From: a virus
Taxonomy: Duplodnaviria > Caudoviricetes
Reading direction: 5' to 3' (one strand)
Length of the DNA: 55,858 bases
Virus record (IMG/VR): IMGVR_UViG_3300019766_000001
Span: 1-55,858 of that record
Positions 1-55,858 of the stretch are shown in pieces. The stretch's first letter is position 1; the number at the start of each line of letters is the position of its first letter. Position numbers and translations under genes: made by a program. Under the pieces are notes generated by a model. That model had not been told where the DNA came from and did no database searches. It worked only from the letters and a program-made list of their open reading frames with translations.

Positions 1-123
1 AACTTCTCTGGCAAACCTTTAAACGTATTAAGATCAAACTCAATCATAGGGAACTCACCTTCAATCATTGGCAGTTCAATTGACCCGGTATTAACAGCTA
101 AACTTTTCATAATTCAAACTCCA
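1..123. repeat. Direct terminal repeat (copy 1); identical to 55736-55858, probably a circular-assembly overlap
   Basis: aacttctctggcaaacc...ttcaaactcca occurs at both ends and falls inside ORF 55249-55845. Confidence 0.95.
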
Positions 124-134
124 TGCGTGTGCGG

Positions 135-198
135 CTATAACAACAAAATGTTGTCGGATTGTTCGCTGCGGCTCACACCGCAAATTTAAGGGTTATTC
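135..198 (+). mobile_element. Integron attC site (attC-1)
   Basis: R'' CTATAAC (135-141), 5-nt spacer, L'' AAT(G)TTG(T)CGG pairing with CCG-CAA-ATT leaving two unpaired bases, 5-nt spacer, R' GTTATTC (192-198); 64 bp. Confidence 0.85.
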
Positions 199-510
199 GG
201 CTTTACTTAATAGAGCGGCCTTGGCCTTCTGGCACTGTTTGATCAGAACGTCTAAAGAGGCTGGGTTTTTTGTCAAAATCTGAAGATATGCTCCAATCTC
301 ATCAACCTTTCTGCCCCCTACGTTTTCAGTTTGATCGCCACCAACACCAAGGTTAACTTCTGCTTGACTAAAGCAGATACCACAAAACCCTTCATCTGTA
401 GTTACATCACTAATGACTGTCTCACCGTCACCCAGCTGTATGGTAGGAACTCCATAAGTAGCCATAAAAACTTGGTCGCTCGATGTTCCGATCAGTAAAC
501 TTGGTTTCAT
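193..510 (-). CDS. Hypothetical protein carried on integron cassette 2
   Basis: 105 aa ORF with RBS AAGGTGAG; its stop codon overlaps the GTT of the attC-1 R' box. Confidence 0.8.
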   Translation of the reverse strand: MKPSLLIGTSSDQVFMATYGVPTIQLGDGETVISDVTTDEGFCGICFSQAEVNLGVGGDQTENVGGRKVDEIGAYLQILTKNPASLDVLIKQCQKAKAALLSKAE

Positions 511-536
511 AATCTCACCTTCTTAGTTTTAAATCC

Positions 537-599
537 GAATAACAATTCGCTGTTGTCAGATGCTAGCTGTGACTCACACAGCAAAGCTCTGGGTTACAG
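537..599 (+). mobile_element. Integron attC site (attC-2)
   Basis: R'' GAATAAC (537-543), AATTC spacer, L'' GCT(G)TTG(T) pairing with CAA-AGC, TCTGG spacer, R' GTTACAG (593-599); CCGAATAAC is the exact complement of GTTATTCGG at 192-200. Confidence 0.85.
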
Positions 600-619
600 C
601 CCGACCTAAGCCGGGCTGT
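596..619 (-). terminator. Hairpin just downstream of ssb
   Basis: ACAGCCCGACCTAAGCCGGGCTGT GC-rich stem; no clear U-tract. Confidence 0.45.
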
Positions 620-624
620 TGTTG

Positions 625-1224
625 CTAAAAGGGTATGTTCTGGTCTTCATTGAAACTACCCGGCGGCATTTGCTGCTGGCCGTGCGGGTGTTGCTGGTTG
701 TACTGGTCTGCAGGCGGCAAGGCGTTGTTAGGGTTTTGCCGGTTAGCTGGAGCCGGTGCTTGCTGCTGCATCGGCTGCTGGTATTGTTGCTGAGGCTGCT
801 GGTATTGTTGCTGAGGTTGTGGCGCAGGCTGCTGATAGCCCTGTTGCTGTGATTGCTGTTGTCCTTGGCCGTCACCCTTGCTATCCAACATCTGCATTAC
901 ACCGCTAAAGCCATCGACAACGATCTCTGTTGTGTAGCGATCCTGGCCAGATTGATCCTGCCATTTGCGTGTTTTAAAATTACCGGATACAAATATTTTT
1001 GACCCCTTCGTTAAGTACTGGCCTGCTATTTCTGCAAGTTTTCCAAAAAAAACCACTGGTATCCAATCGGTTTTCTCTTGCTTCTGGCCAGACGATTTGT
1101 CAGTCCAAGAGCTTCCGCAGGCTATCGATATGTTAGTAACCTGCCCGCCGTTTGGAAGAAATTTTGTTTCAGGGTCTTTCCCTAAACGTCCAATAAATTG
1201 ACACTGATTTAAATCGTTAGCCAC
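625..1224 (-). CDS. ssb: Single-stranded DNA-binding protein
   Basis: N..FIGRLGKDPE, KGSKIFVSG, RKWQDQSGQDRYTTEIV motifs; Q-rich linker; acidic C-terminus ending IPF. Confidence 0.97.
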   Translation of the reverse strand: MANDLNQCQFIGRLGKDPETKFLPNGGQVTNISIACGSSWTDKSSGQKQEKTDWIPVVFFGKLAEIAGQYLTKGSKIFVSGNFKTRKWQDQSGQDRYTTEIVVDGFSGVMQMLDSKGDGQGQQQSQQQGYQQPAPQPQQQYQQPQQQYQQPMQQQAPAPANRQNPNNALPPADQYNQQHPHGQQQMPPGSFNEDQNIPF

Positions 1225-5775: not shown

Positions 5776-6306
5776 ATGATTAAGTTTGAATCTGAAGCGC
5801 ATTTTGAAAAATTTATTATTGATCATCATAAAAAAACAGGGGAGCTGATAACTCACGATGAGAGCTGGATGTACCTGTATTCGCAAATGAAAATAGAGGG
5901 CGTTGGAATACCTGATTTGATAGCTATAAACCCAGGAGAAACTATACACGGAGGTATTCTTCCTAGCCTTCTTGTCCTTGAGTTAAAAAATCAACCAGTG
6001 CAAGAAAAAGATGTTGGTCAGCTTGCCAGATACATGTCGTATTTTGAAAGAAAACTTGAAGGGGTTGAGGTTAGAGGGGCGCTTGTTGTTCCTGAGACAA
6101 AATATACAGCAAGCGATTCTTGTTACTTAATGGACTCTATCGGAGATAAGGTTGATTTTATAACATTCAGCCTTGGGATTAACGGTATTGATTTCTCTTA
6201 TCGTGAGAATTTTTGTAATAACCGAGAGAATAATAACGCAGCAATACTTATGCTTGAAAAGCTTAACGAAGGGTACGGTCTAGCGCTTGTATCTGGGGAA
6301 GAGTAG
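5776..6306 (+). CDS. PD-(D/E)XK nuclease (NucS-like C-terminal domain)
   Basis: IPDLIA...VLELK...GQLARY catalytic and QxxxY pattern. Confidence 0.7.
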   Translation: MIKFESEAHFEKFIIDHHKKTGELITHDESWMYLYSQMKIEGVGIPDLIAINPGETIHGGILPSLLVLELKNQPVQEKDVGQLARYMSYFERKLEGVEVRGALVVPETKYTASDSCYLMDSIGDKVDFITFSLGINGIDFSYRENFCNNRENNNAAILMLEKLNEGYGLALVSGEE

Positions 6307-6308
6307 CA

Positions 6309-7235
6309 ATGAGTAATCATTTTTTTGATATCGGAGATGCAAAGGTTTACGGGGTTGACCAGGCTATCATTCTTGGCAATATGAGATTCTGGCTAGACCA
6401 TAACAAGGCTAATAAGACTAATGTTCACGATGGTTATTACTGGACTTATAATAGCGCTAAGGCGTTTGCCGAGCTATTTCCGTATTGGTCTAGCAATAAG
6501 CTGCAAAAGCTCCTGAAGAAGATGGAGATTGACGGTGTAATTATTACAGGTGAATTCAACAAGAAGGGGTACGACAGAACGAAGTGGTACACAATGCCAG
6601 CGTATGCCATTCAGCCAAATGGCGTAATGTATTCAGCCGATCCGCTGAATGCATCCAGCCAAACGGCTGAACCTATACCAGATATAAACACAGATAATAA
6701 ACCAGATAAAAAAACTACTGTTAAGCCGGAATCATTTAAGCAGTTCTTTGAGCAATACCCAGATCACAGGAAGGGCGGTACAGATTCGTATGCATGGAAG
6801 AAATGGAAGCAAGAGAAGCTAACAGAAGGTGATGCCAGTCTTGCTTTGTCCTGGATACTTAAGGCCAACGCTATACCAGGCTGGAGAGAGTCACAGTACA
6901 GGCTAGGCATTCCTAAATTTATTGAACAAAGAATCTGGTTGACACCAATAGAGGCGCAGAAAAATGAAATCAGCACAGGAATTAGCCAGAGCGCAAATAG
7001 CCAAGTCAAAGACGGCAGGTCATACGCAGACCGCCAGCGCGACAAGCTTAGCGAGTGGTACAAAGAGAACGGACTCAATGAAATCGATGGCGTACCTATG
7101 GGATCGGATGAATCAGCTTTACCCACAGGGCAAGTGGTCGAAGCAGGAAGGGGAGACGCCAACAGAGATATGGATCAAAGCGTTATCGACCTACGACCTG
7201 AGCAGGATTCGGATAGCTATTACCAAGGCGGTTGA
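6309..7235 (+). CDS. Replication initiator (lambda O-analogous), containing the origin iterons
   Basis: N-terminal wHTH-type WTYNSAKAFAELFPYWS...DRTKWY; internal iterons; C-terminal FKQFFEQYP domain. Confidence 0.85.
   Translation: MSNHFFDIGDAKVYGVDQAIILGNMRFWLDHNKANKTNVHDGYYWTYNSAKAFAELFPYWSSNKLQKLLKKMEIDGVIITGEFNKKGYDRTKWYTMPAYAIQPNGVMYSADPLNASSQTAEPIPDINTDNKPDKKTTVKPESFKQFFEQYPDHRKGGTDSYAWKKWKQEKLTEGDASLALSWILKANAIPGWRESQYRLGIPKFIEQRIWLTPIEAQKNEISTGISQSANSQVKDGRSYADRQRDKLSEWYKENGLNEIDGVPMGSDESALPTGQVVEAGRGDANRDMDQSVIDLRPEQDSDSYYQGG
6609..6714. repeat. Replication origin 1: three palindromic iterons at 22-bp period plus A-rich CAGATA repeats
   Basis: ATTCAGCCAAATGGCGTAAT / ATTCAGCCGATCCGCTGAAT / ATCCAGCCAAACGGCTGAAC at 6609, 6631 and 6653. 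Confidence 0.8.
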
Positions 7236-54958: not shown

Positions 54959-55248
54959 CCGCCTTCTTCTCCTGGTGCTTCTGCATTAACTTTGCGCTTA
55001 GCATTGCAAGCTCATATGCTGGACGGTACTCTTTATTTTGCTTGGTTATCATTTCTCACCCCGATGACTATAAATCTCATTGCTAGCATTCCAGCGCCAA
55101 AACAAACAGCAGAACAAAAACCCCTGATAACAGGGTCTTCGTTTAGTACGATTGTTATCATTGCCGGAATAAAAACGTAGATCATAAGTATTTCTTTAAT
55201 CATAAATAACACCTCAATAACATAGACCTTCGGCTATGTATTTCTCTG

Positions 55249-55845
55249 TTATAACGCACTGCCTGTATAGCGGTGATCCTCAGGCATTGTTATTCGAGCA
55301 AAAACCCTGTGCACATCATCCTTCATCGGTAGTGATTCGTGAATAAAGTGATTGTTCCCGTAATAAACTTGATCTGGCTGTAATTCAAAAGGCTCATCCA
55401 AATCAAAGTGCGTACAGTCTCCGCCTTTCTGAGGTACGCCCTCATATTCACCAATCCAGCCGTTGCAAGCCCTGTAATTTGAGGCTAGTACAATGCCTCC
55501 AGTTTCCTTTGTGAACTGTCGCTCATGTATCGGGTGTCCAGGCTCTCTGCCTTCTTCGCCTACCTTCCAGCCGCCGCCGCCAAAGCTCATCACGTGGGGT
55601 TCATAATTACCATCTATGTGCGCCCCGCCTCTGCGCAGAGTTTCGCCCTTTTTAAGCTTCTTTCCATGCATAGTGAAGTAAGCCTTACCACCTTCATGCT
55701 TTATGCCTTGCATCATGTCTTTTGCAATGCCTAGAAACTTCTCTGGCAAACCTTTAAACGTATTAAGATCAAACTCAATCATAGGGAACTCACCTTCAAT
55801 CATTGGCAGTTCAATTGACCCGGTATTAACAGCTAAACTTTTCAT
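55249..55845 (-). CDS. 2OG-Fe(II) dioxygenase-like protein carried on integron cassette 1
   Basis: RRGGAHIDG (HxD) ... IHESLP (H) ... R.F.RI pattern; GGAG RBS; stop overlaps GTTATAA at 55248. Confidence 0.7.
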   Translation of the reverse strand: MKSLAVNTGSIELPMIEGEFPMIEFDLNTFKGLPEKFLGIAKDMMQGIKHEGGKAYFTMHGKKLKKGETLRRGGAHIDGNYEPHVMSFGGGGWKVGEEGREPGHPIHERQFTKETGGIVLASNYRACNGWIGEYEGVPQKGGDCTHFDLDEPFELQPDQVYYGNNHFIHESLPMKDDVHRVFARITMPEDHRYTGSAL

Positions 55846-55858
55846 AATTCAAACTCCA
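55736..55858. repeat. Direct terminal repeat (copy 2)
   Basis: Identical to 1-123. Confidence 0.95.

Follow-up and report, generated by a model that had tools for sequence, protein, structure and literature searches.

Two integron gene cassettes with antisense genes and no integrase in the genome of a marine phage

The locus and its two attC sites

The stretch of DNA considered here, referred to as the window, is the whole of the viral record IMGVR_UViG_3300019766_000001 (Duplodnaviria; Caudoviricetes), 55,858 nucleotides in length. The two ends of this contig overlap by 123 bases, positions 1–123 being the same as 55736–55858, which yields a circle of 55,735 bp with a GC content of 44.8%. 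Its source is a marine phage. Within the leftward early operon, between ssb and a small downstream gene, sits a pair of integron gene cassettes, each with one gene and one attC site (Table 1). Both cassette genes are encoded on the − strand, in the same direction as ssb, an HNH gene and erf, and each has its own ribosome-binding site. No match to the integron integrase family TIGR02249, to PF00589 (Phage_integrase) or to PF00239 (Resolvase) was found in the whole record at expectation values (E) up to 1, in searches to which control genomes responded; the preliminary description of this DNA had likewise reported no integrase. The two attC sites are 402 bp apart, start to start, in a 55.7-kb genome without an integrase. 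The locus is therefore a two-cassette CALIN (clustered attC sites with no integrase) and not a complete integron, in which intI stands with an adjacent attI and Pc.

Table 1. Positions of the cassettes, their attC sites and genes, the two array junctions and the adjoining backbone gene
Feature	Position	Strand	Remarks
attC site 1 (top strand), belongs to cassette 1	135..198	+	Crossover G|TT 192/193; R1 66.8 bits; R2 43.3 bits, E 2.4e-9
attC site 2 (top strand), belongs to cassette 2	537..599	+	Crossover G|TT 593/594; R1 57.4 bits; R2 31.9 bits, E 3.7e-6
Cassette 1 (679 bp in total), first part	55249..55735	+	Junction strings; L240 homology ends 55247
Cassette 1, second part, including attC 1 up to G at 192	1..192	+	Continues across the circular join
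Cassette 2 (401 bp), beginning TTATTCGG..., antisense reading frame and attC 2 up to G	193..593	+	9/9 complement; GC 43.1%
198-residue gene of cassette 1 (phrog_8970)	55249..55845 (= 55249–55735 + 1–110)	−	Stop TAA, complement of TTA at 55249–55251
105-residue gene of cassette 2, function unassigned	193..510	−	Stop TAA, complement of TTA at 193–195
Left junction, ...TTTCTCTG|TTATAACG, phage backbone to cassette 1 at GTT	55241..55252	+	No significant attC model match upstream
Right junction, ...CTCTGGG|TTACAGCCCG, with hairpin following ssb	586..621	+	Sequence
ssb	625..1224	−	Backbone gene upstream of the cassettes in the leftward operon

The attC-shaped sites reported in the preliminary description are present at their coordinates, as two copies, on the + strand, of one roughly 62-base structured element. 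Both follow the pattern ATAACAA-N5-TGTTGTC-N-GA ... CTCACAC-N-GCAAA-N5-GGGTTA, and each half of this pattern, at 0 mismatches, matches these two places only within the window. In shuffled controls the observed count (at least 2 for the first half-pattern, at least 3 for the second) was reached in 0/100. Read along the + strand, the first arm of the element consists of TAAC, a 4–5 nt spacer, 3–4 bp, an unpaired G, TTG, an unpaired T, CGG or CAG, and then a variable loop; the second arm consists of CCG or CAG followed by CAA, 3–4 bp, a spacer and GTTA. In the outer L box, paired bases have changed together from one site to the other (AAT/ATT versus GCT/AGC). When both sites are aligned with 11 relatives, 96.2% of the cells are paired, as against 27–46% when the partner arm is slid; three pairs are changed on both sides, and the unpaired G and T occupy fixed columns. 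The inverse core sites TAAC and GTTA are invariant in 13/13 of these aligned members. A search of positions 1–1300 against Rfam at E up to 10 returned chance-level matches only and no attC family.

The pattern drawn from the two sites also matches other viral contigs, together with 120 or more bacterial genome stretches, almost all of them from marine Gammaproteobacteria; the genera among those listed include Marinobacter, Halomonas, Alteromonas, Pseudoalteromonas, Shewanella and Vibrio. Covariance model R1 finds 143 matches in 100 bacterial loci, often several on one strand at spacings of 0.5–3 kb, as in two loci with four matches each (L108 and L133). An integron integrase scoring above the curated cutoff of TIGR02249 (NCBIfam) is present in four of the five genomes tested. 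In five integrons, one in genome G001, three in G002 and one in G004, the sites start just past the 5′ end of intI and are all model-forward, reading away from it. In the Marinobacter array (G001) every site is preceded by a + strand open reading frame (ORF). This link between the family and intI is independent of the window-derived pattern. A second covariance model, R2, was built from 13 bacterial array sites only, nine of which had been gathered with the window-derived pattern; it scores both window sites well (Table 1), in answer to the covariance-model check proposed in the preliminary description. The next match of R2 in the window reaches 15.2 bits (E 0.17), with no further match at E below 0.1, and scanning of every window position with R1 and R2 returns the same two sites only. 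The window sites thus belong to a genuine integron attC family, which is used by chromosomal integrons.

Two further observations concern the bacterial side of this family. A single 66-nt attC sequence recurs unchanged in 15 of the 124 pattern-matched sites (L095 and roughly 100 further bacterial loci), and is near-identical across many genera, including Shewanella, Halomonas, Thiomicrorhabdus, Enterovibrio and a few metagenome-assembled genomes labelled Verrucomicrobiaceae or Erysipelothrix; this subtype is spread far beyond a single species. In G002, four co-oriented attC sites (C2, 2745820–2750334) are remote from all three of the genome's intI genes and form a bacterial CALIN.

Cassette boundaries and gene polarity

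IntI crosses over at G|TT. The bases that follow GTT therefore belong to the next cassette, and should complement the R″ of that cassette's own site. For cassette 2 this holds without exception: R″ of site 2 (CCGAATAAC, 535–543) complements positions 192–200 (GTTATTCGG) at 9/9 bases, exactly as the preliminary description had stated, and the limits of 193–593 given there fit the R″/R′ rule. The rule extends to other phages. In 13 adjacent pairs from seven phage arrays, the five bases beyond GTTA match R″ at a mean of 4.15/5 (six pairs at 5/5), compared with a mean of 1.97/5 in 367 non-adjacent pairs (three at 5/5).

The R″ of site 1 agrees less well with its cassette start than that of site 2: at 55248–55259 it matches only 3/5 bases ungapped beyond GTTA, or 11/13 with one indel permitted (strings compared by eye). 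The complementarity reported earlier at 55248 is thus partial, and the left limit of cassette 1 is placed with the help of a viral contig, L240, which matches the cassette 1 unit at 78% DNA identity over 649 nt. This homology runs from inside attC 1 to window position 55247, stopping one base past G|TT, and cassette 1 is therefore taken to extend from 55249 through the circular join to 192. The left junction, CTCTG|TTA, fits the 5′-GWT-3′ consensus of secondary sites; IntI inserts cassettes at such sites in genomes (bioRxiv 10.1101/2022.09.11.507474). Upstream of this junction there is no significant attC match, the weak matches at 55249–55295 on the − strand scoring 13.5 and 11.5 bits (E 0.81 and 1.8). 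Short TAAC...GTTA hairpins lie just outside and just inside the left cassette limit (55213–55295); these could be a decayed attC and not a plain GTT secondary site.

In textbook attC sites the extrahelical bases of the bottom strand are G and T, and this raised the possibility that the strands of the window sites had been assigned the wrong way round. The opposite assignment is ruled out by the orientation of the bacterial arrays relative to intI and by their sense genes, and on the same grounds the window's + strand is identified as the top strand of the attC sites. Both window genes are consequently antisense to their attC sites and neither unit is a sense-gene cassette. The genes are co-directional with the leftward operon and have their stop codons in TTA, as had been described.

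Bacterial members of the family are arranged in the opposite manner. Polarity was counted at those of the 124 pattern-matched sites that have 700 nt or more of upstream sequence, 110 in number. In 105/110 the longest ORF upstream is in the sense of the attC, and its stop is at a median of 9 nt from the site. The corresponding ORF is antisense in 4/4 viral contigs, namely the window, L018, L040 and L055. Weaker attC-like matches in L240/L243 and L257 (E 0.0014–0.064) are also antisense to the genes, the site at 1916–1967 of L240/L243 being counted as such because its unpaired A lies on the 5′ arm of the other strand, the ‘+’ call of the model being unreliable there. A further contig, L291, has one strong match (E 1.3e-6) and two weak ones, again antisense. 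A metagenome scan for the subtype of site 1 yielded 11 contigs, of which ten were analysed and one (L282) was set aside as apparently the same contig as L055; in the ten, the stop of an antisense ORF falls exactly in the TTA of GTTA at 15 of 20 sites. In the published CALIN of phage H101, four sites lie on the + strand according to the model built here, and all nine annotated genes of the stretch lie on the − strand. Every phage array of this attC family examined is antisense, that of H101 included.

The subtype of site 1 has been seen only in phage-like contigs with antisense genes, four viral and 11 from metagenomes, one apparently counted twice. BLAST with site 1 found it in none of 702 genomes (0/401 of the Vibrionaceae family and 0/301 of the Alteromonadaceae family), a search in which only near-identical copies are detectable and which missed a divergent member in G005.

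Some arrays show additional features of coding. At 6491–6608 of L040, and at 6087–6214 and 6421–6497 of L055, antisense ORFs have their start within the loop of the attC or at an ATG that lies in the complement of R″ (GTTATG). A common ...(E/G)RVVM peptide, encoded by the antisense of L″–R″, therefore stands at the beginning of several L040 and L055 proteins or within them. Two ‘viral’ contigs from isolate genomes (L054 and L067) have attC sites of the common bacterial subtype, with genes in the sense direction; they may be pieces of chromosomal integrons inside or beside predicted prophages.

A broader proposal is put forward tentatively, at somewhat less than even confidence, namely that reverse-coded cassettes may be a selected architecture specific to phages, which would keep a cassette pool of their own with their own attC subtypes. 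In such a pool the attC would precede the gene, and the recombinogenic bottom strand would be the coding (non-template) strand. Phage genes might become cassettes because a TAA-C stop codon is a G|TTA crossover site on the other strand, so that the stop would give birth to the cassette, and host IntI might then be the means by which phages exchange accessory early genes with one another.

Cargo genes and the surrounding operon

The protein encoded by cassette 2 (ORF105) has no Pfam match above cutoff and no PHROG match. It has 22 relatives, one of which, 69% identical, lies between antisense attC-like sites in L291. Locus searches with a single protein as query found none for ORF105 and one for the product of cassette 1 (ORF198), while alignment-based searches found 3 and 31 loci, respectively.

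ORF198 belongs to phrog_8970, a family of unknown function (E 5e-44), and has 259 relatives in a large protein collection. Relatives are also present in Vibrio phage phi50-12 and in Erwinia and Pseudomonas jumbo phages, and the version in L240 is 84% identical at the protein level. Only 4 of 28 viral loci with ORF198 relatives contain attC-like matches, and ORF198 is therefore regarded as a normal phage gene, carried on cassettes by a minority of phages only. Its structure model is a confident one, with a pLDDT (predicted local distance difference test) score of 88.4. No structural match was obtained at E ≤ 0.001; the best fold match, a weak one, is to Fe(II)/2-oxoglutarate dioxygenases (E 1.2e-3, template modelling score about 0.35). 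The family has an invariant H-x-D and later His residues, which would fit the idea of an Fe(II)/2-oxoglutarate dioxygenase. The term ‘dioxygenase-like’ used for this gene in the preliminary description thus has weak fold support only.

A collection of phages held no DNA match to window 120–620. A neighbouring 98-residue gene has relatives in 18 loci, the best at 57% identity, too distant for breakpoints to be mapped, and these loci contain no R1 match at E up to 1 (18 of 26 sources searched). A scan of the − strand of positions 1–1400 found no promoter-like or terminator-like site. The HNH endonuclease gene (1217–1720, − strand), located between ssb and erf, is 68% identical in DNA to HNH genes of Klebsiella and Escherichia phages, and the genes that neighbour it have matches only in Vibrio phages; it is probably a free-standing homing endonuclease gene. 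The tail region of ssb contains 21-nt direct repeats (family D1) and a Gln-rich repeat, and one contig assembled from a public sequencing run (X4) is without 21 bases of the latter (window 773–793). In another run (X3), a contig of 55,186 nt at a depth of 83.6 shows four differences over 863–1300 and is divergent before 863, which indicates a putative mosaic breakpoint inside the ssb of a related phage.

Mobility and comparison with known systems

As the phage encodes no tyrosine or serine recombinase, recombination at the array would need host IntI in trans, and we infer that a host IntI inserted the cassettes or shuffles them. The array is probably a CALIN whose two units were brought into the leftward early operon, and can still be moved, by this enzyme. 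Every unit starts at the TT of a G|TT and ends at the G of the following one. Along the top strand of the attC it comprises an opposite-strand gene and then its attC, so that in the sense of the phage mRNA the attC precedes the gene, and the TAA stop of each gene forms the first three bases of the cassette. The units may have entered one after the other, host IntI joining the folded bottom strand of an attC to a GTT secondary site or to a resident attC, and they might be excised or reshuffled by it during infection. Expression of the cassette genes would occur by read-through from the phage operon. Mobility of the units is favoured by the cassette 1 unit shared with L240 and by the ORF105 relative between antisense attC-like sites in L291.

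Several observations weigh against this reading. The contigs of four public sequencing runs (X1–X4), of which X1 may come from the source sample, contain no joint that removes a cassette, although contigs drop rare variants and uncovered parts carry no weight. A relative with an empty site, which the preliminary description had suggested looking for, was found neither among the relatives of the 98-residue gene nor by a 16-mer search of viral contigs; the exact 16-mer across the predicted empty site has two matches there, both rejected for unrelated flanks. The R2 scores are not fully independent, because bacterial training sites were gathered with the window-derived pattern. The unpaired G and T are present as described, with the correction that they lie on the top strand, leaving C and A on the bottom strand, where textbook sites have G and T. 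Bacterial members that adjoin intI also have a top-strand G, followed by A, T or G and then A, and this feature is therefore considered a family trait and not a defect. Finally, the predicted probability that the R box closes on the bottom strand (DNA parameters) is low (site 1, 9e-4; site 2, 4e-3). The same probability is 0.13–0.56 in five of eight bacterial sites, while the other three and one H101 site are as low as those of the window. The attC-type hairpin is also not the minimum free energy fold of 76-nt folding windows around the sites (Z −0.58/−1.96 for site 1, −3.83/−3.48 for site 2).

The low predicted folding probability of both bottom strands, and the lack of cassette-removing joints in the four runs, would be expected of genuine attC sites in an array that is now a fixed relic, having arrived once and folding poorly, its genes domesticated and no longer moving. 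The cassettes also have a GC content like that of the phage genome (43.1% for cassette 2 and 45.8% for cassette 1), and the homologous unit of L240 has a decayed R″ without AAC. Such a relic is nonetheless rather unlikely. Drift would have eroded the match between R″ of site 2 and the start of its cassette, which still stands at 9/9, and computed folding is just as poor for some genuine sites. Moreover, in the microbial-mat communities from which the same four runs derive, both attC subtypes are present with other flanks (loose ends at 136 and 538).

It is very improbable that the array is a fragment of a host chromosomal integron, acquired through illegitimate recombination or through an excision that was imprecise. 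The family of the attC sites is a bacterial one, and captures of this kind have been published for prophages of Vibrio anguillarum (PMC9892861), but the polarity of the genes is opposite to that of bacterial cassettes and both ends of the array fall exactly at G|TT. The type of site 1, as described above, has been seen only in phage-like contigs with antisense genes, and ORF198 comes from a phage family with relatives in jumbo and Vibrio phages. The window encodes no integrase, and hence shows no sign of lysogeny.

The hairpins are located between genes of one operon, and in several arrays a start codon lies inside the complement of R″, which would suit regulatory or processing elements of the phage (terminators, RNA stability sites or hot spots of mosaicism) that have come to resemble attC by convergence. 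The base-for-base alignment with sites in arrays beside intI makes this highly improbable, as does the cassette rule across adjacent sites, for which there is no regulatory rationale; the hairpins have no U-tract, and the terminator scan was empty on the − strand of 1–1400. That some recombinase other than IntI moves the units, either an Xer-like enzyme of the host or a phage enzyme that went unrecognised, is scarcely credible, for although the extrahelical bases differ from the textbook ones, the family adjoins TIGR02249-class integrases above the curated cutoff in the genomes tested and the window encodes no tyrosine or serine recombinase.

Integrons are usually studied as gene-capture devices of bacteria. 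The present locus is a clean phage case with exact G|TT boundaries, and it hints that the host of the phage carries an integron. Across the window and the other arrays examined, the genes of phage cassettes with this type of attC lie consistently on the strand opposite to that used in bacterial ones. If this polarity is a rule, phages and bacteria would keep largely separate cassette pools served by the same recombinase, the orientation of a cassette would mark its phage or bacterial origin, and the birth of cassettes through use of a TAA-C stop as a secondary site would become testable.

CALINs in phages are a published kind of element, first reported in 2023, when 17 were described among 21 phages with integron components (Qi et al. 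2023, PMC9892861). IntI1 recombined five of six attC sites from virulent phages in that study. The consistent reversed coding is a variant that was not found described: the words antisense, opposite and reverse occur 0 times in the main text of PMC9892861, and a literature search returned no title or abstract describing reversed polarity of phage cassettes.

The closest known system is Pseudoalteromonas phage H101 (PH101; NC_029094). Like the window, it has at least two attC sites without an integrase and no sign of lysogeny. Its sites are of the same attC family, R2 finding four that are co-oriented at 31.6–37.6 bits; the cassette rule holds there at 4, 5 and 4 of 5 bases, and the annotated genes are on the opposite strand. 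The two phages are unrelated, at 55.7 kb as against 132 kb for H101, and the present array has two cassettes with different cargo.

In having no attI or intI nearby, and a left junction that fits GWT, the array also resembles the SALINs (single attC sites lacking an integrase) and small CALINs at attG sites (bioRxiv 10.1101/2022.09.11.507474). According to that preprint, 1362 of 2961 CALINs have only two cassettes, as does the array in the window. The attG insertions lie in bacterial chromosomes, unlike the present one, which has a phage genome as its target and carries its genes in reverse; phage enters the preprint, in the parts consulted, only as a comparison with lambda integrase. The sedentary chromosomal integrons of marine Gammaproteobacteria, such as that of Marinobacter (G001), share with the window the attC family, the R″/L″/L′/R′ layout and the top-strand unpaired G. 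They differ from it in having intI, sense genes (at the frequency given above) and mostly longer, better-folding sites.

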